Assembly: GCA_963668025.2 (NCBI GenBank) | Contig: CAXXTH010000010.1 | Location: forward strand, 1,312,001 to 1,376,000 | Length of the DNA: 64,000 nucleotides | DNA from: Candidatus Hydrogenedentota bacterium | Lineage (GTDB): Bacteria > Hydrogenedentota > Hydrogenedentia > Hydrogenedentales > SLHB01 | Direction of reading: 5' to 3' | Shown here: positions 5,270 to 62,142 of the stretch, piece after piece | Layout: each line of letters begins with the position of its first letter | Position numbering within the stretch: position 1 is the first letter of the stretch | Notes under the pieces: generated by a model | What the model was told of the DNA's origin: nothing | What the model saw: only the letters and a program-made list of their open reading frames with translations | Databases searched by the model: none | Made by a program: the position numbers and the translations under genes

Positions 5270-6603
5270 GGACGTTCACCCACTTCTTTGGCCCGGTGCG
5301 CAAGCGCTTTGCGGGCTTGCCCGATCCCCGCAAACCCGAGCAAGCCGGCGACGTGGACTACAGTGTCGCGTCGCTGGTGTTCTTGGGAGTGCTGATGTTC
5401 GCATGCCGGCTCGGGGCGCGCCGGCAAGTCCGCCTGCAGTTGTACACGACGTTCATGGTCCATCTGTACAAGGTCTTGTTTGACGTGGACAGCGTGCCGC
5501 ATGGCGATACGATGAACGGGGTATTTCGCGGTTTGCCGTTCGAGGCGGTCCAGGAACTCGTTTCCGGCATGACGCAGACGCTCATCGACAAGAAGGTGTT
5601 GTACCCCCACCGCCTGTTCGGGCGCTACTACGTGGCGGCCATCGACGCCACGGGGACACGCAGTTATGATCATCGCCACTGCGCCCATTGCCTCACGCGC
5701 AAGCACAAGAGCGGCAAGATCACCTACTACCATCCCGTGCTGGAGTCCAAGATCGTCACGCCAAACGGGTGGGTCTTTTCGCTCATGACGGAGTTCATTG
5801 AGAATCCAGAGAAAGACCTGGCGAAAAGCGAGCAACAACGCAAGCAGGATTGCGAGACCAAAGCCTTCTACCGGCTGGCCCCACGCCTGCATGCCCGATT
5901 CCCCCGCTTGCCGCTGCTGTTGGCGATGGACGGCCTGTACGCCACGGGACCGGTGTTTCGGCTGTGCCAGCAATATGGCTGGAAGTTCATGATTACGCTC
6001 ACGGACGGCCAATTGGCCACCGTGAACGAAGAATTCGAGAGCCTCGCGGCCGCGACGCCCGAAAACCAGCTTACGTGGCGTTGCGGCAACAAGAAGGAAA
6101 TCCACCAGCAGTTTCGCTGGGTCAACGACATCCCCTACCGCGATTCCGAGCGGCGTGAACACATCCTGTCCGTGCTCGAATGCGTGGACACCCGCCCGGA
6201 CGCGGAAGGCATGATAAAGAAAACCAAGTTCAAATGGGTGACCAACGTATCCGTATCCGCGCACAATGCGGCCGCCTTGGCCAATGAAGGAGGACGCTTA
6301 CGCTGGAAGATTGAAAATGAAGCATTCAACGTGCAGAAAAACGGCGGCTACAACCTCGAACACGCCTATACCCAAAACGAACAGGCCAGTAAGATCTACT
6401 ACCTCTTGATGCAGATAGCCCATCTGCTCATGCAACTCCTGGAGGATGGCAGCCTTCTGGCCGCCCACTTTCCAAAAGGCTTTGGCTCCGCCAGAAACCT
6501 TGCCCATCGCCTCCTCGAAGCCCTGCGCAACGCCACCCTGTCCCGCGAACAATATGACGCCCTCTGCACCGAGGCCATCCAGATCCGCTTCAGTTCCGCA
6601 TAG
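5167..6603 (+). CDS. DDE transposase
   Basis: LPDPR, AIDAT, KQDCETKA, MDGLYA and GRLRWKIENEAFNVQKN motifs; lies inside the TIRs; exact start uncertain. Confidence 0.9.
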   Translation: MEKAQEARRGHGRGPTAVPANPQEEHPEIIRAFLRTFTHFFGPVRKRFAGLPDPRKPEQAGDVDYSVASLVFLGVLMFACRLGARRQVRLQLYTTFMVHLYKVLFDVDSVPHGDTMNGVFRGLPFEAVQELVSGMTQTLIDKKVLYPHRLFGRYYVAAIDATGTRSYDHRHCAHCLTRKHKSGKITYYHPVLESKIVTPNGWVFSLMTEFIENPEKDLAKSEQQRKQDCETKAFYRLAPRLHARFPRLPLLLAMDGLYATGPVFRLCQQYGWKFMITLTDGQLATVNEEFESLAAATPENQLTWRCGNKKEIHQQFRWVNDIPYRDSERREHILSVLECVDTRPDAEGMIKKTKFKWVTNVSVSAHNAAALANEGGRLRWKIENEAFNVQKNGGYNLEHAYTQNEQASKIYYLLMQIAHLLMQLLEDGSLLAAHFPKGFGSARNLAHRLLEALRNATLSREQYDALCTEAIQIRFSSA

Positions 6604-53784: not shown

Positions 53785-55071
53785 CTATTTCCGCAATGCC
53801 TGCAACGTGTACGCCGGGAGTTTTTTATCCGCGAAGATCGGTTTGAACCGCGTGAAGCGGTGGCGGCCGGCATTGATCGGCGCGCTGATCCAGTCTTCGC
53901 CGATGAGCGGTTTTGCATAGCGCACGAAATCATCCGTCACATCGATCTTGCTTGGCGCAATCCACGACTTCGGGAAAGAACGTTCCGAATTGGCGACTTG
54001 TTCGAGAGGCACTTTGTCATACCGCACATTATAAATCACGCCCGGCTCGCGCAAGATGGTGGACATCCAGCCATTCTCGCCGGATTGGGCGATCAAGGCG
54101 GCCTTCTGGCCTACTTTATATGCTTCATCCAGGTCCACGATGGATGTATACAGCGCCATGGCGCGTTGATCCGTACCCGAGACTTGTCCGCGCGCCGCAC
54201 CAGGCACCGGCAGTTTCTTTTCATTCAACAAGTTGACGATTTTCTGCGCGGCGGTCAGTTTCGTGGCTCCGAAATGGGTGTGGCCGAAGCTATCCTTGAT
54301 ATCGCCTAATTCGCCTATGTCGAAGCCCTCGCTTACGACGAGCATGCACCGGCCATCGCGCTTGAGCTGGTCGCTCACGTTGTCGCATAACTCTTCCGCT
54401 GTCACGCCCGATTCGGCCATATAGATCTGAAGCGGCATCTCCCGTTTCGGGTCCGCCAGACGCGCCGCCGCAGGAATGAAGCCGATTTTGCGGCCCATGG
54501 CCTGCATGACCAGAACGGGATCGTTGGGGCAAGAACCTGCATTTTCTTCGTTGGCGGCCTGGACCACGCCCATCCAATACCGCGCCACGCTGCCGTAGCC
54601 CGGCGTATGGTCGATGAGCTTGAATTCCGAGTCGCCCACGTCGTTGTCGATGGTCTTCGGAACGCCGACGCCGATGAGGTCGAGGCCTTGTTCGTGGGCG
54701 AGGTTGGCGATTTTATGGGCGGTGTCCATCGAGTCATTGCCGCCGTTATAGAAGAAATACCCGATGTTATGGGCCTTGAACACCTCGATGACCCGCTGGA
54801 AGTCCTCTTGCTGGTCTTTTTTCAACTTGTACCGGCAAGTGCCGATAGAGCCTGCGGCGGGGGTGTAACGCAGCAGGGCGACTTCTTCTTCATCTTGAGC
54901 AGACAGGTCGAGTAATTCTTCCTTCAAGACGCCCTCAATGCCGTGCCATCCCGCGTAGAGGGTTCCAAAGGTCTCAGGGAACATCTTGCACGCGTCGATG
55001 ACGCCGCGAAGCGAGCTGTTGATGACGGGGCTAGGCCCGCCAGACTGTGCGACAATGACATTCTTTGGCAT
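53785..55071 (-). CDS. PfkA-family kinase, predicted PPi-dependent
   Basis: QSGGPSPVIN, GGNDS (Asp typical of PPi use), PKTIDND, MGR and SEG motifs. Confidence 0.85.
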   Translation of the reverse strand: MPKNVIVAQSGGPSPVINSSLRGVIDACKMFPETFGTLYAGWHGIEGVLKEELLDLSAQDEEEVALLRYTPAAGSIGTCRYKLKKDQQEDFQRVIEVFKAHNIGYFFYNGGNDSMDTAHKIANLAHEQGLDLIGVGVPKTIDNDVGDSEFKLIDHTPGYGSVARYWMGVVQAANEENAGSCPNDPVLVMQAMGRKIGFIPAAARLADPKREMPLQIYMAESGVTAEELCDNVSDQLKRDGRCMLVVSEGFDIGELGDIKDSFGHTHFGATKLTAAQKIVNLLNEKKLPVPGAARGQVSGTDQRAMALYTSIVDLDEAYKVGQKAALIAQSGENGWMSTILREPGVIYNVRYDKVPLEQVANSERSFPKSWIAPSKIDVTDDFVRYAKPLIGEDWISAPINAGRHRFTRFKPIFADKKLPAYTLQALRK

Positions 55072-55540
55072 GATGCAATTGTTCCTCCTGTATAGTGCCA
55101 TTATATCCAAATAGAATGAACCTAAATAATCGGCTTACGCCGATTCAATATGAATTCCATAGAGTAGCATAGCCGCAACTAAAGGCCCGGATTGTAGGCC
55201 ACGAAATACCCTAAATACACGAAAACATTCAATGGAATACTTTGTGACTCTGGCCACGCCGTTGTTAATTGCTCATCAGTGTAATCGGTGTCATCAGTGG
55301 ATCAAAATGTCTTCAAATGCTTGCACAGGAAATCTTTGCAAGAAAAGGTTTTTTGTAGATAGCAGCCCAACACTGGCGGCGCATGGCGGCATTGAAATAC
55401 GTGTAGCATGCGCTTTTCTTGTTTAACCAGCTTCTATTAGTTAATAATTTCATAAAAATCGATTAAATAACAATCATAAATTAACTTATTATACAGCTAG
55501 AGTCAACGCTCTAACATTATCTAGGGCCTATTATAAGACA

Positions 55541-56869
55541 TTATGACATACGATTTCTATAAAAAGGCTTCGGTGCGGGATTGCCTTCTTTTAACCGATA
55601 GAGCACTTCTCCCGCGTGTGGCACGAGGAGAAGCCCTTCCTCTTCCTTGTCTTTCCAGTCATCGGGATGGATGGATGCCGGAGCACGATACCCCAGGTTA
55701 ATGGCGCGGCATTCCTCTTCGGGTATTCCCGTGGCCAGCGTGACCTGAATCCGGCATTTTTCCACGCCGTTTTCCATAGTCCCGATGCCGCGCACGTGGG
55801 TCGAATGGGCCAGGATGCCGCCGGGTATGTCGCGAAATCTATCGAGTTGGGACAAGAAATAGTCGCGGGTATGATAACCGATGCGCTTGATCAGTTTGCC
55901 ATGAGTCACGCTGATTTCACGAATATGCGGCGCACAAATAATCAGTTCGCCGCCATCGGCCACCACGGGCTCGAGCTTGTACATGCATTTGCCCGCCACC
56001 CAGATCTCGTCATACATGGCGGGGGCCATGGCGAGCACGCTGGTGTAGGGGCGGTCTTTGTAGACGACATGCGTCTGTGCCGATAGGTCCGCTGCGGCGT
56101 CCCAGGCGTCTTCCGGCGTGCCGTAAAAAATGCCTTTGCAATCCTTGCCCATCACATTCAGGCAAAAGCAGCGTTTCTCGATGGGAATCATGGAGGCGGC
56201 TAGGTTGATGACTTCCCGCACGGGCGTGTACTTTGTGCCATTGATGACGGGATTCGAGATCAGCGCGCCCAACCAGTGAAATAGGTTCAGTATTTCCTCG
56301 CCCGCGATGCCGGGGAAAAAATACTTGTTGCCGCCGCTGAAGCCTACGACCTCGTGGGGAAACACGGGCCCTACAATGCACAGCAAATCGTAATCAAAGA
56401 TCCGCTTGTTGATCAGCACATCGGCGCGCTGCCGCAGCAATCCGCCGCTGATGTGTTCGATCTCTTCCTCAGTGACCGTTCCGATATGCCGCAGCATATC
56501 CGCATTCTGCCAATCATGATTAAAAATGCCGACATCCGCGTATTTGGTTGCGCGCTCTTCGGACGATATGCCCACGAGGTGGTTGATGGCCTCATCCGTC
56601 ATGGGCGGATGTGTGCCCAAGGCCACGAGGCAATCCATTTTCGCCACGCGCCCATGGACCGCATCAAACAGCGCTCGAAACATAGCCGCCATGGGCATGC
56701 TGCGCGTGCTGTCGGGAATGATGAAGAGGACGCGCTTGCCATTGATGGATTCGTTTCCCAGCGTTTCTTGCACGAAAGCATGCAAGCCGGACTCTGATAG
56801 GAAGCCTTGCGATGCGATCAGTTGCTTAGTTGAGGATGTGGTTTGCATCAACTCGGGTATCTCCTCCAT
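55541..56869 (-). CDS. LarA-family (nickel-pincer) 2-hydroxyacid racemase/epimerase
   Basis: IPDSTR, ALGTHPPM, NHDW and PHEVVGFSGGNK motifs. Confidence 0.88.
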   Translation of the reverse strand: MEEIPELMQTTSSTKQLIASQGFLSESGLHAFVQETLGNESINGKRVLFIIPDSTRSMPMAAMFRALFDAVHGRVAKMDCLVALGTHPPMTDEAINHLVGISSEERATKYADVGIFNHDWQNADMLRHIGTVTEEEIEHISGGLLRQRADVLINKRIFDYDLLCIVGPVFPHEVVGFSGGNKYFFPGIAGEEILNLFHWLGALISNPVINGTKYTPVREVINLAASMIPIEKRCFCLNVMGKDCKGIFYGTPEDAWDAAADLSAQTHVVYKDRPYTSVLAMAPAMYDEIWVAGKCMYKLEPVVADGGELIICAPHIREISVTHGKLIKRIGYHTRDYFLSQLDRFRDIPGGILAHSTHVRGIGTMENGVEKCRIQVTLATGIPEEECRAINLGYRAPASIHPDDWKDKEEEGLLLVPHAGEVLYRLKEGNPAPKPFYRNRMS

Positions 56870-57034: not shown

Positions 57035-58201
57035 TTATCCGGATACTTCCGCAGATCTATCGGCAATGCTATATCCCAATCCCGCCAGCGCCCTCTCGAT
57101 CTCGCTATTCGCAGGCTCCACGAGCGCGCGCGTATTAAAAAACTCGCAGCGCTGGGGATATTCTTTCCGCAAGCGATCAAAGTATGCGCCGCGCTGTTCC
57201 TCGGGCTGCCCAATAATGCCGCGCATGGCCGCATCGTCTTCCACTATATCATAAACCGGTTTTACTGCTTGCCGCAGGGCGTCCATAAAGGGAAGTGAAC
57301 CATCCACGCGCACTTCGGGGCACGCTGGCGCGGGGAGCAAAGGCGCGGGATTCCAAGTGGGGGGGAGGCCCAGGAATTGGCAGGCGGCCTCGTAAATCTG
57401 CCGCGTGCCGTTCACCTTGCCATCGAAGGAGTAGCCCGCGATGTGGGGCGTGCCGATGAACACGCGCTTGAGCAGAGCGGCGTTTATACTCGGTTCGCCT
57501 TCCCATACATCGAGCACGCAGGCCCGCAAGTGGCCATCATCCAGGGCGTGTATAATCGCTTTGCCGTCCGCCACGGGGCCGCGTGAACTGTTCATGAGAA
57601 TCGCGCCTGGCTTCATTGCTTGAATAAACGATTCGTCCGCCAAATGATAGGTCGCGTCCGGCCCTTCTTTCTGAATAGGCACATGGAGCGTGACGATATC
57701 GCATCCCAGGATCTCTTCAATAGGCCGGTATTTGGTATTGCCAGTCTGGCGCTCGAGCGGCGGATCGTTGAGGACGCACTTCATGCCTAGCGCAGTGGCC
57801 ATGGCCAGCACCCGTTTTCCCACATTGCCCACGCCTACGATGCCCAGCGTCATGCCGTGCAAATCGAATCCGAATCGTTCGCTCAGCGCCAGCAAGGCGC
57901 ACGCGATATATTGGCCTACGCTGTTCGCGTTGCAGCCCGGCGCGCTCGAGAAAGCGATGCCGTGTTGTGCGAGATACGCCTTGTCGATGTGGTCTTCTCC
58001 AATGGTGGCCGTGGCCACGAAACGGACCTTGGAGCCATCCAAGAGCGCCGCGTTCACCTTGGTGATCGAGCGGACCAGCAGTAGTTCCGCGTCGTGGACG
58101 GTCTCTGCGGCCATCTTGCGGCCGTGCGCCGTACACACTTCGCCCAGTGGCGCAAACGCCTCCCGGACATAGGGGATGTTTTCATCGGCGATAATCAGCA
58201 T
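57035..58201 (-). CDS. pdxB: 4-phosphoerythronate dehydrogenase
   Basis: IADENIP, LLVRSIT, TATIGEDHID, APGCNA, LDVWEGEP, TPHIAGYS and FDRLRKEYP motifs. Confidence 0.9.
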   Translation of the reverse strand: MLIIADENIPYVREAFAPLGEVCTAHGRKMAAETVHDAELLLVRSITKVNAALLDGSKVRFVATATIGEDHIDKAYLAQHGIAFSSAPGCNANSVGQYIACALLALSERFGFDLHGMTLGIVGVGNVGKRVLAMATALGMKCVLNDPPLERQTGNTKYRPIEEILGCDIVTLHVPIQKEGPDATYHLADESFIQAMKPGAILMNSSRGPVADGKAIIHALDDGHLRACVLDVWEGEPSINAALLKRVFIGTPHIAGYSFDGKVNGTRQIYEAACQFLGLPPTWNPAPLLPAPACPEVRVDGSLPFMDALRQAVKPVYDIVEDDAAMRGIIGQPEEQRGAYFDRLRKEYPQRCEFFNTRALVEPANSEIERALAGLGYSIADRSAEVSG

Positions 58202-58218
58202 GGTAGCTCCTTTTTTGG

Positions 58219-58247
58219 ACCACGAATGGACACGAATTTGCACGAAT
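58219..58247. repeat. Single periodic arm (CACGAAT x3, 10-nt period)
   Basis: ACCACGAATGGACACGAATTTGCACGAAT just upstream of the pdxB RBS. Confidence 0.7.
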
Positions 58248-58381
58248 AAAGAAGTGCATTTCTGGTGCATTAATCAAACTTACAGACAAAATGCTTATGT
58301 GTATATAATTATATTTATAGTACATTATTAAATTATTTACTGATGTATTTTCATTGATTCATATATGTAAAATAATCGTGA

Positions 58382-59440
58382 TCATTGGTGTTTATTCCTG
58401 GTTCCTCTCGTTTCTTCATCAATGATTGCTTTCGTGAGCGAGATAGCGTCCAGCGCATATGGGCTGTCGCTGGTCTCCTGGCACAAGATGATTTCATCAA
58501 CGCCTTGCCGCACGGCAAGGGCGACATCATTGAGTTCAGCCCGGTTGGGCGTTCCGGTGGACGCATAGTGTTCGAGGAATTGCGTGGCCACGGCCACGGG
58601 CTTGCCTGCTAATTGGGCAAGTTTTACGATCTCCTCCTGAATGCGCGGCAGCCGGTGGGGCGGCACGAATATGCCCAAGTCGCCGCGCCCCAGCAGAACG
58701 CCATCCGCTTCGGCGATGATGGCGCGCGCGTTTTCCACGGCGTAAGCGGTTTCGATTTTAGCGATGATGCGCGGTGTCTCCTCCGGCCATATAGCGGTGA
58801 TGTCGCGGCGCGCTTCGGCTATCTGCGCGGCGGATACGGCCAGAGATAGCAGGATGCCGCTGGGTTTTATGCGTGCGGCGGCGAAACAGGCGAGGAGCTT
58901 TTGGTCGTCCTTGCGAAGCAATTCAAAATGGACGCCGCTATCGGGGAAGCTGCACCCGTTGTTTTCTTGAAGCGCTGAAGAGGCGGTATGGCATCTTGCC
59001 GATATCGTATTCGCCGTGTGGGAAATCACACTGAAGATATTACGCCCATCACGGAACATCAGCCGATGTCCGGGCTCGAGCATGGAAGCCCATTGCGGCA
59101 AGCCAGGCAGTGGAATTTCACCCTCTATTTGGGTGGTTTCCGCATCCACAAGCTGGACGATTTCGCCAGGATGGAACCGGCGGGCAAGCATGCGGCCAAT
59201 GCGCGGGCGCGTGGCGGGCAGATCAAGATATAGCCCGCATTTGGTTTCAAGCCCAGCAGAGGCTAGTATTTCTTGCTTGGCCAGAATAATATTTCGAGCG
59301 TCCATCAGATGATCGCGGCCGGACAGCCCTAAGGCCATGCGGAATCCGTTTGCACCGCACGCCATGGCTTCCCTGAGTTTTTGTAAGGAATCCATGGTTC
59401 GTCCGGCGCTGGCGATGATCCGGGGGCGCTGTTGTATCAA
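58382..59440 (-). CDS. Divergent pyruvate-kinase-like protein lacking the C-terminal regulatory domain
   Basis: IAKIET, GRGDLG, VATQ and PNRAELNDV retained; RLNFSHG and DTKGP motifs replaced; protein ends right after the barrel. Confidence 0.8.
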   Translation of the reverse strand: MIQQRPRIIASAGRTMDSLQKLREAMACGANGFRMALGLSGRDHLMDARNIILAKQEILASAGLETKCGLYLDLPATRPRIGRMLARRFHPGEIVQLVDAETTQIEGEIPLPGLPQWASMLEPGHRLMFRDGRNIFSVISHTANTISARCHTASSALQENNGCSFPDSGVHFELLRKDDQKLLACFAAARIKPSGILLSLAVSAAQIAEARRDITAIWPEETPRIIAKIETAYAVENARAIIAEADGVLLGRGDLGIFVPPHRLPRIQEEIVKLAQLAGKPVAVATQFLEHYASTGTPNRAELNDVALAVRQGVDEIILCQETSDSPYALDAISLTKAIIDEETRGTRNKHQ

Positions 59441-59445
59441 GGTTT

Positions 59446-59586
59446 TTACGACTCCTTCGCCAACTGCGGGAAGAGCGTCACCACAAAATCATATACCGGT
59501 TCTTCGAAGGTTTCGCACCACCAGGTGGGCGCGCAGCCGCATGGCATGGGGCATAACTGGCTGGTGGCGGCTTTTATGTGCTTCAT
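59446..59586 (-). CDS. 46-aa Cys/Trp-rich peptide (absent from the ORF track)
   Basis: GAGGAG RBS, ATG 59586 to TAA 59446: MKHIKAATSQLCPMPCGCAPTWWCETFEEPVYDFVVTLFPQLAKES; ends 5 nt before the PK-like start. Confidence 0.65.
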   Translation of the reverse strand: MKHIKAATSQLCPMPCGCAPTWWCETFEEPVYDFVVTLFPQLAKES

Positions 59587-59605
59587 GGCCTGTCTCCTCA
59601 GTTGT

Positions 59606-59648
59606 AATAGGGGAGAAGCCATCCCACATCGAGTGTTTCTCCCCTATT
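59606..59648. other. 12-bp perfect stem at the upstream edge of the peptide/PK-like cassette
   Basis: AATAGGGGAGAA ... TTCTCCCCTATT. Confidence 0.6.
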
Positions 59649-59668
59649 TGTTCCACCAATAGGAATGG

Positions 59669-60568
59669 TTAATGGCCGTTCTTTTTCCACGGCGGCAGCT
59701 CGGGCAGATACGTGTCGAATTCGCGGATCAATTCCGCTTCATATTCGCCCGCGAATGTGCCCGCGAAGAACCGGTCGAGGCCTTCTTCATACAGACGTTT
59801 CCACGACTTGTCTTCATCGCCCGGAAGGATGGGGAAGAAGAGTGCGCCATTGCCCCGCGCTGCTTTCATATCGCCCGGCGCGTCGCCAATCATGAGCATG
59901 TTCATTTTTTCGTAGCGCCCTTCCGAGGCGTAGCCGATATGCTGCGTCTTTGTGCCCATTTCCTGCCCCGCGATGGCGAAGACATACTCGGCGAGGCCTT
60001 GCTCTTCCCATTCGCGCACGAGGGCCTCCGTGGGCGTCTGTGAACAAACCAGCATGTCCGCCTTATCTTGAGCTTTTTGCAGGCATTCACGCACATAAGG
60101 GAACGGCGGAAGGCCTTTGTCCACGATATCCGCCACCGATACATTCACGGCTTTGCTCCAGCGCAAGGTTTGGTGCATGACCGGATCATCGTGTTCTTTG
60201 CAATATGCCTCGAGGGCGGGATTGCCCAGTTTGGATTCCTTTTCGACCCATGCCCGCAGCGAGGGCACATCAGGGGCCTTAATGCCGCGCTCTTGCACTT
60301 TGTCCCAATCGTTCAGCAGGTCGAAGGTCATCAGGATCGCTGGAAAGCGGTTGCAGCCGCGCCATTTCGAGTAGAGGTTCACGAACTCCGCCGCCGCGCG
60401 CGCATATTTCGACACGGTTTGGAGCTCCCAATGCTTGATGATGTTCGGGATGAAACATTCCTTGTGCTTGATCTCCATCGTATCGAAGGCGCAGCCGTCC
60501 GAATCAATGGCGATTAAGAATTGGTGTTTGGGCTGGTGGTTCTTCAGAACTGCTACGGGGTCGCTCAT
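59669..60568 (-). CDS. HAD-family hydrolase
   Basis: IDSDGCAFDT motif I; GQEMGTK; MIGDAPGD motif IV. Confidence 0.88.
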   Translation of the reverse strand: MSDPVAVLKNHQPKHQFLIAIDSDGCAFDTMEIKHKECFIPNIIKHWELQTVSKYARAAAEFVNLYSKWRGCNRFPAILMTFDLLNDWDKVQERGIKAPDVPSLRAWVEKESKLGNPALEAYCKEHDDPVMHQTLRWSKAVNVSVADIVDKGLPPFPYVRECLQKAQDKADMLVCSQTPTEALVREWEEQGLAEYVFAIAGQEMGTKTQHIGYASEGRYEKMNMLMIGDAPGDMKAARGNGALFFPILPGDEDKSWKRLYEEGLDRFFAGTFAGEYEAELIREFDTYLPELPPWKKNGH

Positions 60569-60617: not shown

Positions 60618-61022
60618 TCATAACTGTTTATACATTTCTAACAGCCAGTCCCTCATGACGGGGGTATAGGATGAAATGCGTTTCGCGAGTTCTTCAGCGA
60701 GCAATTCATTATAAGTATGCACGGCAAGATTCCGATCATCCGCCATCTGCATAGCCAGATCTTGTGAAGAGCGGTTAATAAGGCCATTTTGCAGGCATGC
60801 CCTCACGATTTCTTTGGGAGAGGCGAATGCTTGCCCATACGCTTGGCGCAATACGGTTTGCGCTGCTTTCCAAATTGCTTCGAACGTAAAGATAAACCGA
60901 AGAATGGCGGCATCCCGGGAACGATTATCGTCATCGTTGGGGATAGGCTCAAGAGGCAGAGCCCTTTCGAGCGCCTCTAAAGCTGTTTTTGCGGTATCTA
61001 GCCGCTTCACCATTATTTCCAT
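60618..61022 (-). CDS. HEPN protein (HI0074 family)
   Basis: RDAAILRFIFTFEAIWK, SPK and RNLAVHTY motifs. Confidence 0.9.
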   Translation of the reverse strand: MEIMVKRLDTAKTALEALERALPLEPIPNDDDNRSRDAAILRFIFTFEAIWKAAQTVLRQAYGQAFASPKEIVRACLQNGLINRSSQDLAMQMADDRNLAVHTYNELLAEELAKRISSYTPVMRDWLLEMYKQL

Positions 61023-61303
61023 CGAATGCCTTCCTTGATGACGGCGTCGCGAAAATCCGCACTCGTGCTCGAAAGGTCTATCACATCCGCGAAATACGGG
61101 ATGTCGCTTTCTTCTAATGCGGAGCGGATGGCTGGCATCACGCTCATAGGCATAGGGCCCTTCGGCAGCACCGCGATATCAATATCGCTTGCGCGATCAT
61201 CTTCTCCCCGGGCCGACGAGCCGAACAGATACGCCTCGGCGTCATGGCCTTCCAGCGCCGATAGCACCAGGGCCTTGGCCTTTTCGATATACTTGGAATC
61301 CAT
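61013..61303 (-). CDS. Minimal nucleotidyltransferase (MNT antitoxin-like)
   Basis: LFGSSARG..SDIDIAV, IPYFADVIDL and EGIRW motifs. Confidence 0.9.
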   Translation of the reverse strand: MDSKYIEKAKALVLSALEGHDAEAYLFGSSARGEDDRASDIDIAVLPKGPMPMSVMPAIRSALEESDIPYFADVIDLSSTSADFRDAVIKEGIRWK

Positions 61304-61311
61304 GGCGCGAA

Positions 61312-62142
61312 TTATACGCCCGAAAACGCGCTGAATCCGCCGTCGATGGGCACCACGATGCCCGTGACGAATCGCGAGGCGTCTGACGCCAGCCAAATGG
61401 CTACGCCGATCAAGTCTTCCGGTTTCCCGAATTCAGCCATGGGCGTATGGGCGATGATGGTTTTTCCTCGCGGCGTCAGCTCTCCGGTCTTCTCATCGGT
61501 CAGCAAGAACCGGTTTTGATCCGTCAGGAAGAACCCCGGCGCGATGGCGTTCACCCGCAGCTTGGTGCTGTATTCCTGCGCCAAGTGTACGGCGAGCCAT
61601 TGAGTGAAGTTGCTGACGGCTGCTTTCGCCGCACTGTACCCCGGTATGCGTGTCAGCGGGCGCAGGGCGTTCATGGATGATATATTAATGATGCTCCCGC
61701 CTTCGGCCTGGTTTTTCATGCGGCGGCCAAAAACTTGGGAAGGCACGATAACGCCTCCGGTCAAGTTGAGATCGATGACTTTCTGAATCGCTTCGGCGGG
61801 GAGATCAAAGAAAGACTGCTCCGGAGAGGTCGTCACGCCCTTCATGTTGCCGCCCACGCAATTGAACAGGCTGTCTACTTTGCCGAAATCGTGGTAAATG
61901 GACTCGCAGCAAGCTTCAATGGACGTTTTTTCAAAGACATTCATCCCATAGGCGGCGGCTTTGCCCCCATCCGCCGTAATGGCGGCAGCCTTCGCCTTGG
62001 CGTTGTCAAGGGCTACATCAGCGATAGCCACGCTTGCGCCTGCGTGTGCAAGGCCGCGAGCGATGGCGCCGCCGAGTACGCCGCCGCCGCCAGTGACGAC
62101 GACTACCTTGCCAGTTAGATCAAAACATGAAGTATTTGCCAT
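61312..62142 (-). CDS. uxuB: SDR, D-mannonate oxidoreductase type
   Basis: TGGGGVLG, RPLTRIPGYSAAKAAVSNFTQWLAVH, APGFFLTDQNR and DGGFSAFSGV, characteristic of the SDR-type mannonate oxidoreductase group. Confidence 0.8.
   Translation of the reverse strand: MANTSCFDLTGKVVVVTGGGGVLGGAIARGLAHAGASVAIADVALDNAKAKAAAITADGGKAAAYGMNVFEKTSIEACCESIYHDFGKVDSLFNCVGGNMKGVTTSPEQSFFDLPAEAIQKVIDLNLTGGVIVPSQVFGRRMKNQAEGGSIINISSMNALRPLTRIPGYSAAKAAVSNFTQWLAVHLAQEYSTKLRVNAIAPGFFLTDQNRFLLTDEKTGELTPRGKTIIAHTPMAEFGKPEDLIGVAIWLASDASRFVTGIVVPIDGGFSAFSGV

Follow-up and report, generated by a model that had tools for sequence, protein, structure and literature searches.

Immediately upstream of a gene for a shortened relative of pyruvate kinase lies a reading frame of 46 codons, rich in cysteine and tryptophan, and the question raised by this locus is whether peptide and enzyme belong together. 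Both are found in a 64,000-nucleotide (nt) stretch of a Candidatus Hydrogenedentota genome (contig CAXXTH010000010.1, positions 1,312,001 to 1,376,000), which we call the window and from whose first letter all positions below are counted. The original prediction, made from the letters alone, took the two for a candidate peptide-modification system resembling those of ribosomally synthesized and posttranslationally modified peptides (RiPPs), with an enzyme that uses phosphoenolpyruvate (PEP) and might phosphorylate the peptide. Our analysis partly supports it: the observation itself was confirmed and the rewiring of the enzyme holds, but the coupling to the peptide does not. Judged from sequence comparison, we give a joint probability of roughly 70% to the reading in which the pyruvate kinase-like (PK-like) enzyme genuinely belongs, under selection, to a deep, multiphylum clade of pyruvate kinase homologues lacking the C domain, and in which the 46-codon open reading frame (ORF) is an orphan specific to its lineage: a frame that arose by chance or very recently, or else a short upstream ORF that is translated. 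On this reading the peptide is not a precursor, a substrate, or a conserved subunit of the enzyme.

The pyruvate kinase-like enzyme and its clade

Reading of both strands places the PK-like gene (positions 58382 to 59440) on the minus strand, together with all other relevant genes of the locus. From its TTG start it encodes 352 amino acids (aa). A later ATG, chosen by the gene caller, would give 337 aa, and the TTG is the likelier start because the orthologues keep the N-terminal strand. The product matches PF00224 with 118.8 bits (cutoff, 30) over positions 3 to 328 of 328, has no match to the C-terminal domain PF02887, and ends after the barrel. The whole C domain is indeed gone, as the original prediction had it, and with the A and B domains only, the clade is without the allosteric domain. 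An AlphaFold 2 model, for which a family alignment of 18 rows was used, reached a pLDDT of 92.4 and a pTM of 0.88, and Foldseek matched it over the A and B domains to solved pyruvate kinases with TMq values of 0.84 to 0.88, the best being 7oo1 and 5ws8; 7oo1 is also the best PDB sequence match. The protein scores far under the equivalog cutoffs for pyruvate kinase (TIGR01064, 150.3 against 306.4; NF004886, 160.9 against 623). A canonical pyruvate kinase, which the original prediction had proposed to look for, is encoded elsewhere in the genome, in a 480-aa frame that scores 427.3 bits.

Relatives of the protein are rare and form a coherent group. In a search of 5.8 billion protein clusters, the 20 best relatives were 263 to 358 aa long, 37 to 51% identical to the query, and all lacked PF02887; beyond them the identity falls to about 30%, and the matches are canonical kinases. 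A profile search against 1.84 billion representatives at 50% identity placed 50 proteins (587 to 250 bits) above the first one of canonical length (243 bits), and the lengths of those 50 were mostly around 330 to 380, 545 to 571, or around 700. The same search returned 4271 proteins at an E value of 1e-30 or less, of which most among those listed have the canonical length. In a survey that took a single genome from each of 185,579 species, 48 loci were found. In a maximum-likelihood tree of 91 rows, a quick IQ-TREE search without bootstrap, the 43 rows lacking the C domain separated from the 48 canonical rows on a long branch with an SH-aLRT support of 100%, so that the comparison proposed in the original prediction came out in favor of a distinct clade. 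Its first subclade is that of the Hydrogenedentota, where the window protein stands beside the homologues P0002 and P0003 (99% support); the other three comprise Acidobacteriota, then Verrucomicrobiota, Planctomycetota, and others, and finally Clostridia with tandem double barrels. The alignment of the short family has 44 invariant columns. No paper on such a clade was found by term searches of open-access full text.

The active site is conserved on one side and rebuilt on the other. Column counts were made over the 43 clade rows and the 48 canonical rows, with rabbit muscle numbering given in parentheses where the window protein is numbered. Kept in 41 to 43 of the 43 clade rows are R34 (R72), D73 (D112), R80 (R119), K228 (K269), E230 (E271), D254 (D295), T286 (T327), and E322 (E363), and the pairs G294-D295 and E363-T364 are common to the clade and the canonical rows. 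In pyruvate kinases, residues 72, 119, 269, 271, 295, 327, and 363 serve PEP and Mg2+, and H77, K206, and S361 lie on the nucleotide side. The window protein retains the motifs KIET, RGDLG, and ATQ, which the original prediction had named (as KIE, RGDLG, and ATQ) as PEP- and Mg-binding elements. It reads RMALGLS where RLNFSHG is expected and ILCQET in place of MLSGET, both as predicted, and DLPATRPR in the region of the canonical DTKGP.

The replacements are shared by the clade. N74, an asparagine in 46 of the 48 canonical rows, is P, A, or H; S76 (41 of 48) is G in 42 of the 43 clade rows; H77 (47 of 48) is Y or L; and K206 (39 of 48) is N in 34 of 43. S361, invariant in the 46 canonical rows counted, is C, G, T, or A. 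At these positions the window protein has A36, G38, L39, N161, and C320. The canonical G115-P116 has become S or A followed by S, E, or T, and position 117, which is K in 30 and E in 12 of the 48 canonical rows, is R in 42 of the 43 clade rows, followed by P for I118, again in 42. Further changes are D (39 of 43) and S (40 of 43) for the G-V after the LP turn, L for the N of DVANAV (39 of 43), R-Q for the xD of xDG, and R, C, or K for the D before DG in the lid. Among the Arg, Asp, and Ser residues specific to the clade are R78, R126, R130, D167, S168, and R311. The loss of the K+ and nucleotide motifs, with the PEP and Mg elements retained, thus holds across the whole clade, and this combination makes an altered recognition of acceptor or nucleotide a reasonable idea. 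Since the clade-specific replacements are conserved across phyla and not scattered, they point to selection on a changed function and argue against decay.

One part of the predicted losses needs qualification. DLPAT does stand in the place of DTKGP, but to call the canonical motif lost overstates the change, because DLQGPK, the K+-independent type, is what the canonical kinase of this same genome has at the site. According to the relevant passages of PMC4374775, the K+ ligands of pyruvate kinase are Ser76, Asn74, Asp112, and the carbonyl of Thr113; the same passages describe the K+-independent signature as Lys117 with Leu113 and Gln114 and a hydrophobic residue at 120, and report Arg at 117 in the active, cation-independent kinase of Aeropyrum pernix. 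The abstracts of PMC8835810 and PMC4284704 agree. The clade looks derived from, or convergent with, this type (L113, a positive residue at 117, and I, V, or T at 120), with a further loss of N74 and S76. With the second isozyme of Pseudomonas aeruginosa (7oo1), which is of the Lys117/Leu113 type, the PK-like protein shares the A and B fold (TMq, 0.84) at 29% identity. In common with the K+-independent kinases it has Leu113, the hydrophobic residue at 120, the positive residue at 117, and all PEP and Mg residues, and it differs from them in the missing C domain, in Arg for Lys at 117, in the replacement of N74, S76, H77, K206, and S361, and in its separate clade. The short 352-aa "pyruvate kinase" of NF005234 (PRK06739) has the same length and is likewise devoid of a C domain, but the PK-like protein reaches only 84 bits against its cutoff of 564 and belongs to a different lineage. 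The protein descends from pyruvate kinase and would work like it, but the missing C domain, the equivalog score, the residues on the K+ and nucleotide side, and the placement in the tree are the reasons for not filing it as an ordinary pyruvate kinase.

The 46-codon reading frame

The small ORF (MKHIK..., positions 59446 to 59586, minus strand) was found as the original prediction had described it, with an identical translation. A Shine-Dalgarno (SD)-like GAGGAG (59594 to 59599) lies 7 nt 5' of its ATG. Its TAA stop (59446 to 59448) is followed, after a gap of 5 nt, by the TTG of the PK-like gene (59438 to 59440), and an AAGGAG in its final codons (59452 to 59457) lies 11 nt 5' of that TTG. 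The peptide has four Cys, all within residues 12 to 24, and two Trp, with a WW pair. It is not unannotated, as had been assumed, since a gene caller had called the small ORF and its product sits in the protein collection.

Is the frame coding? A codon log-odds model trained on 857 long ORFs of the genome gave it 0.227 per codon, compared with a mean of 0.289 (standard deviation, 0.156) for 46-codon windows of real genes and of -0.118 for off-frame windows; 6.9% of the off-frame windows equal its score, which falls at the 30th percentile of the real-gene windows. The GC content by codon position is 0.48, 0.48, and 0.76. When the 228-nt spacer that holds it was dinucleotide-shuffled 5000 times, 20.7% of the shuffles contained a sense-strand ORF of at least 46 codons and 1.4% one with an SD-like word 4 to 16 nt upstream, by an SD criterion that was chosen post hoc, once the sequence was known. 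The organism does use SD motifs, as judged from their presence before 24.7% of 2553 crudely called long-ORF starts in this genome, against 4.1% of control windows. Strain contigs about 96 to 97% identical, from two public runs, cover most of the small ORF and leave it intact, with two differences, one synonymous and the other Thr37Ala, against 21 differences listed for the PK-like gene; this divergence is too small for a test of selection. By these statistics the ORF looks somewhat coding, not decisively, and we would put its translation at a little under an even chance. Of the 14 runs listed for the stretch, none is recorded as RNA.

Conservation of the peptide was looked for widely. The conserved upstream small ORF that the original prediction proposed to look for by tblastn next to homologues did not appear: searched against six orthologous loci (five complete and one partial), the peptide found only its own copy. 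The distance from the HAD-superfamily gene upstream to the PK-like start is 21 nt in three of these loci (L004, L005, and L007), which leaves no room for the ORF; the junction is short in L006 too, and in L008 it holds an unrelated ORF of 250 aa that has no Pfam match. Extra ORFs beside the PK-like gene in other genomes had no Pfam match either. None of the 48 homologous loci carries an upstream small ORF that is similar to the peptide or conserved; in 29 of them a complete sense ORF of 20 to 90 codons ends near the gene start, consisting of the C-terminal end of the gene upstream or of an unrelated string. Apart from itself, the peptide had no match among the 5.8 billion protein clusters (length, 25 to 81), and it occurs only once in its genome. 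When 132 other genomes of the order were searched in six frames, the best E value per genome was 0.0024, which is noise, and the atlas feature search gave no usable look-alike.

Some apparent relatives did not withstand inspection. A six-frame pattern scan of JGI metagenomes, based on a 58-aa reading of the ORF, returned five loci, all seeded by CGCAPTWW, which are not homologues but GC-rich DNA read out of frame, with products rich in Arg and Pro. A derivation of the ORF from a diverged duplicate of the 3' end of the HAD gene, for which there was a tblastn match at 23% identity, was rejected, since 54% of shuffles of the peptide score equally well and, at the nucleotide level, the score does not reach the mean of the shuffles. 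A reading of the type IVT..HLAE.C upstream of Verrucomicrobiota homologues, taken for a conserved Cys peptide, proved on alignment to be a conserved promoter. That promoter (L032 to L070) lies about 60 to 150 nt upstream of the PK-like start and is of the sigma-70 type, with CTTGACG, a spacer of about 25 to 26 nt, and a GTTACAATT-like (TACAAT-like) box; its conservation indicates that in the Verrucomicrobiota-type subfamily the PK-like gene heads its own transcription unit.

Possible reaction and rival explanations

The gene neighborhoods of the clade in other phyla were examined by a Pfam scan of 146 ORFs from 20 loci outside the Hydrogenedentota. A B12-binding radical SAM gene lies upstream of the PK-like gene in eight of them (L034, L037, L039, L054, L057, L059, L060, and L066). 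The PK-like protein is fused to a thymidylate kinase-like domain in three Planctomycetota loci (L037, L054, and L057), and four other loci have a separate thymidylate kinase-like neighbor together with genes for Ham1-like NTPases. Neighbor counts over the 20 loci were 7 for Ham1-like, 5 for VTC, and 6 for DUF4956. A recurring cluster, at about position 6000 of each locus, consists of B12-binding radical SAM, thymidylate kinase-like, Ham1-like, methyltransferase, PK-like, VTC, and DUF4956 genes, and its hosts are metagenome-assembled genomes (MAGs) of Verrucomicrobiota, Planctomycetota, Chloroflexota, and others. This cluster, with the fusions to the thymidylate kinase-like domain, looks like an uncharacterized pathway for a nucleotide-like metabolite. 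Two loci in Clostridia MAGs encode tandem double PK-like barrels (L029, 4361 to 6178; L031, 4915 to 7014), with NeuB or CMP-sugar-type (cytidylyl)transferase genes and radical SAM genes as neighbors, and three Acidobacteriota loci have CoA-transferase genes nearby.

From residues and context together, the most likely function would be a PEP-dependent phosphoryl transfer with an altered acceptor. The enzyme would bind PEP, or a 2-oxo or 2-hydroxy acid, with Mg2+ in the manner of pyruvate kinase. It would not need K+, because Arg78, at position 117, where K+-independent kinases have Lys, would supply the charge, and it would not be under allosteric control. The phosphoryl group would then pass from PEP to an acceptor recognized differently from ADP, possibly a nucleoside diphosphate (modified or not), another phospho-anion, or a polyphosphate-type anion. 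In the sister subclade, the fusion to a domain resembling nucleoside monophosphate (NMP) kinases and the Ham1 and VTC neighbors would point to a nucleoside diphosphate or another anion of the polyphosphate type. On the clue of the thymidylate kinase-like fusions and Ham1 neighbors, the acceptor may be nucleotide-like, and the extra Arg residues in lid and cleft would fit an anionic one. An alternative acceptor is a hydroxy acid, since the partners of the gene in the window cluster act on 2-hydroxy acids and their phosphates. That acceptor or reaction differ from those of the ADP-dependent kinase is, for now, a tentative proposal. We advance with equal reserve the wider idea of a class of PEP-utilizing phosphotransferases with non-ADP acceptors, for instance, a modified nucleoside diphosphate or a phospho-anion, inorganic or organic, serving as accessory enzymes in several unrelated pathways, namely, the pdxB/LarA/HAD acid-sugar cluster here and the radical SAM/NMP-kinase/Ham1/VTC clusters in Verrucomicrobiota and Planctomycetota.

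Could the peptide nevertheless be the partner of the enzyme, as precursor or substrate to be phosphorylated or modified, as metal-binding subunit, or as regulator? Such a RiPP-like two-gene cassette would make sense of the 5-nt gap and the SD motif within the ORF, of the four Cys, the WW pair, and the coding-like codon usage, and of the rebuilt nucleotide side of the enzyme. However, the peptide is missing from the orthologous loci and from the 48 further homologous ones, an outcome that the original prediction had itself named as refuting it; no homologue of it turned up in any collection searched, and the altered site is conserved in clade genomes that have no such peptide. The surroundings do not help the cassette either. 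The original prediction saw no radical SAM enzyme, protease, or exporter next to the pair, and this stands: the genome has 41 PF04055 matches, of which the nearest on this contig (C10:1400409) is some 29 kb distant and falls outside the window, and no Pfam or NCBIfam protease or exporter model matched the neighboring genes scanned. The likeness that it saw to SCIFF/ranthipeptide precursors extends to a length of about 46 residues, a Lys-rich N terminus, and several Cys. SCIFF precursors have a C-terminal core of six Cys. The present peptide has four and is not conserved; it matches none of the NCBIfam or Pfam families, precursor families included, at an E value of 0.01 or less, in a searched copy whose inclusion of the SCIFF precursor model is unverified, and none of the four genome matches to the SCIFF maturase model TIGR03974 reaches the cutoff. 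Cofolding of peptide and enzyme scored 0.00, which is evidence neither way. We therefore consider the RiPP-like cassette very unlikely, give a direct role of any kind with the enzyme hardly more than a nominal chance, and find it scarcely credible that this genome acquired a de novo Cys/Trp miniprotein as partner or substrate of the enzyme. The only plausible role of the small ORF would be in cis, as a translated upstream ORF that delivers ribosomes to the weak TTG of the PK-like gene. In relatives such as L004, L005, and L007, with their 21-nt junction, the gene would be coupled to the HAD gene; here, some 200 nt of foreign spacer would have split the two, and translation of the small ORF would restore the delivery, since ribosomes that finish it 5 nt before the TTG could reinitiate there. 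The good SD motif and ATG and the AAGGAG suit this explanation, and known translationally coupled upstream ORFs and leader peptides show a similar stop-start gap and internal SD motif. They differ from the small ORF in conservation, in attenuator or terminator structure, and in a link between Cys/Trp codons and the downstream function, none of which is found here. Coding-like codon usage is not needed for pure coupling, and the arrangement may be accidental, given how often shuffled spacers contain a frame of such length. On balance, coupling in cis is possible but rather unlikely.

The enzyme itself has its own rivals. It could be a second, unregulated, K+-independent pyruvate kinase isozyme that depends on ADP in the ordinary way. 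The full barrel-plus-lid fold and the complete set of PEP and Mg residues are what such an isozyme would have, Arg117 occurs in the active archaeal kinase described in passages of PMC4374775, and the sources annotate the relatives as "pyruvate kinase." The equivalog score speaks against it, as does the replacement throughout the clade of N74, S76, H77, K206, and S361, which are near invariant in the canonical rows. So does the long, fully supported branch. The genome, moreover, already has a canonical kinase, and the contexts are nonglycolytic: radical SAM/thymidylate kinase-like/Ham1/VTC, NeuB, and pdxB clusters. We regard an ordinary isozyme as unlikely. A decaying, functionless paralogue is very improbable. 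Its scattered occurrence, in 5 of the 53 other family genomes, its fast divergence (44 to 51% identity, compared with 64 to 83% for the HAD protein), and the many nonsynonymous differences among strain variants are what decay might leave behind, but no locus seen has a broken frame, and the invariant columns, the clade-specific substitutions conserved across phyla, and the confident predicted fold would hardly survive it.

Several points weigh against the reading that we prefer, that of a selected, rewired enzyme next to an orphan ORF. The same set of kept residues would also suit an ordinary ADP-dependent kinase without regulation, or an enolpyruvate-type reaction other than that of a kinase. 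The clue from gene context stems from another subclade, only 36 to 40% identical to the window protein. The coding statistics of the small ORF beat those of most chance ORFs, and a real product with an unseen role may exist. Apart from the contig fragments at about 96 to 97%, the nearest genomes share about 50% identity in the enzyme, so that the comparison speaks almost only to conservation over long range, and next to the two closest homologues, P0002 and P0003, whose contigs lie outside the locus comparison, a similar spacer may exist.

The clade matters as a coherent, rare, and uncharacterized branch of the pyruvate kinases, in which the PEP and Mg chemistry is kept and the K+ and nucleotide side has been systematically rebuilt. 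Families with the same fold and a new acceptor tend to yield new activities, and the present public annotation as "pyruvate kinase" would lead reconstructions of metabolism astray in Hydrogenedentota, Verrucomicrobiota, and Planctomycetota. As for the orphan ORF, it may be a young small gene or a coupling upstream ORF, and is a modest candidate for either.

Gene cluster, spacers, and repeats

As the original prediction stated, the pair sits between a HAD-superfamily gene and pdxB. The HAD protein (59669 to 60568, minus strand) is present in 50 of the 53 other genomes of the family. It matches no NCBIfam model and no Pfam model over the cutoff, and it finds no relative among PDB sequences. The gene pdxB (57035 to 58201, minus strand), for 4-phosphoerythronate dehydrogenase, matches NF001309 with 450.4 bits (cutoff, 434). 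The genome has PdxA and PdxJ, no match to PdxS, and no second pdxB over the cutoff, for which reason the window pdxB is probably a gene of the pyridoxal phosphate pathway. Within the family (window and L091 to L119), the pdxB products are 31 to 42% identical, well below the 64 to 83% of the neighboring HAD protein.

Two further genes are conserved members of the cluster. One encodes a homologue of LarA-like (nickel-pincer) 2-hydroxyacid epimerases (55541 to 56869, minus strand), whose nearest model is "putative hexonate epimerase" (181.8, cutoff 500) and which stays well under the cutoffs of all models for characterized LarA homologues; a term search found neither "pyruvate kinase" nor "PdxB" in the LarA superfamily paper (PMC11770544). 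The other is a short-chain dehydrogenase/reductase (SDR) of the D-mannonate oxidoreductase subfamily (61312 to 62142, minus strand; 351.9 bits, cutoff 281). A gene for PPi-dependent phosphofructokinase (53785 to 55110, minus strand) is near the cluster in three of six Hydrogenedentota loci. Between SDR and HAD, which are adjacent in relatives, a HepT-like/nucleotidyltransferase (MNT) pair of the toxin-antitoxin type is inserted here (60618 to 61396, minus strand). The order SDR-HAD-(PK-like)-pdxB-LarA-like is found in 6 of the 48 loci, all of them Hydrogenedentota by title except L067 (Nitrospiraceae).

The PK-like gene is an accessory member of this cluster. Orthologues at 44 to 48% identity are found in five other genera of the family, and one more genome of the order, the sixth, has a fragment; the 5 family genomes that have the gene always carry it in the HAD-pdxB slot. 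Among 29 HAD loci, 17 have HAD followed by pdxB and no PK-like gene, 1 has the PK-like gene, and 11 have no pdxB match within about 1.5 kb downstream. In L004, L005, and L007, the 3' end of the PK-like gene overlaps the start of pdxB by 4 to 17 nt. The suggestion that the pair looks like an inserted cassette finds partial support in this distribution of the PK-like gene.

None of the cluster's junctions is tight in this genome: the genes are set apart by the toxin-antitoxin pair between SDR and HAD, by the 228-nt spacer between HAD and PK-like (59441 to 59668), found in this genome only, and by an AT-rich spacer before pdxB. The 228-nt spacer has no second copy in the genome, its RNA fold has ordinary stability (z = -0.88), and Rfam gave only a subthreshold chance match to a snoRNA. 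Promoter and terminator scans found nothing beyond the shuffle level. The 12-bp stem noted upstream of the pair is a perfect inverted repeat with a 19-nt loop (59606 to 59648, minus strand; arms 59606 to 59617 and 59637 to 59648), 20 nt past the HAD stop; no U tract follows it, and the terminator scan called nothing there.

The AT-rich DNA noted downstream is the spacer between PK-like and pdxB (58203 to 58381), with 27.9% GC over 179 nt and 21% over 58260 to 58381, against 55.4% for the genome. Neither spacer had a meaningful match among 80 fetched loci, and the idea that they are copies of mobile elements was rejected; only about 35 to 45 nt before pdxB belong to a dispersed repeat. That copy (about 58212 to 58255) lies directly 5' of the pdxB ribosome-binding site. 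The repeat consists of three ATTCGYG-like words about 11 nt apart and an A run, often with a TTGGTTGCGGCCATGCCGCGC-like tail, and 70 genomic matches were listed by a permissive search; it also occurs, in other contexts, on contigs of other runs. It recurs in the window at 55150 to 55225, upstream of the phosphofructokinase gene, where the arrangement is similar to that of the AT-rich, repeat-bearing spacer before pdxB.

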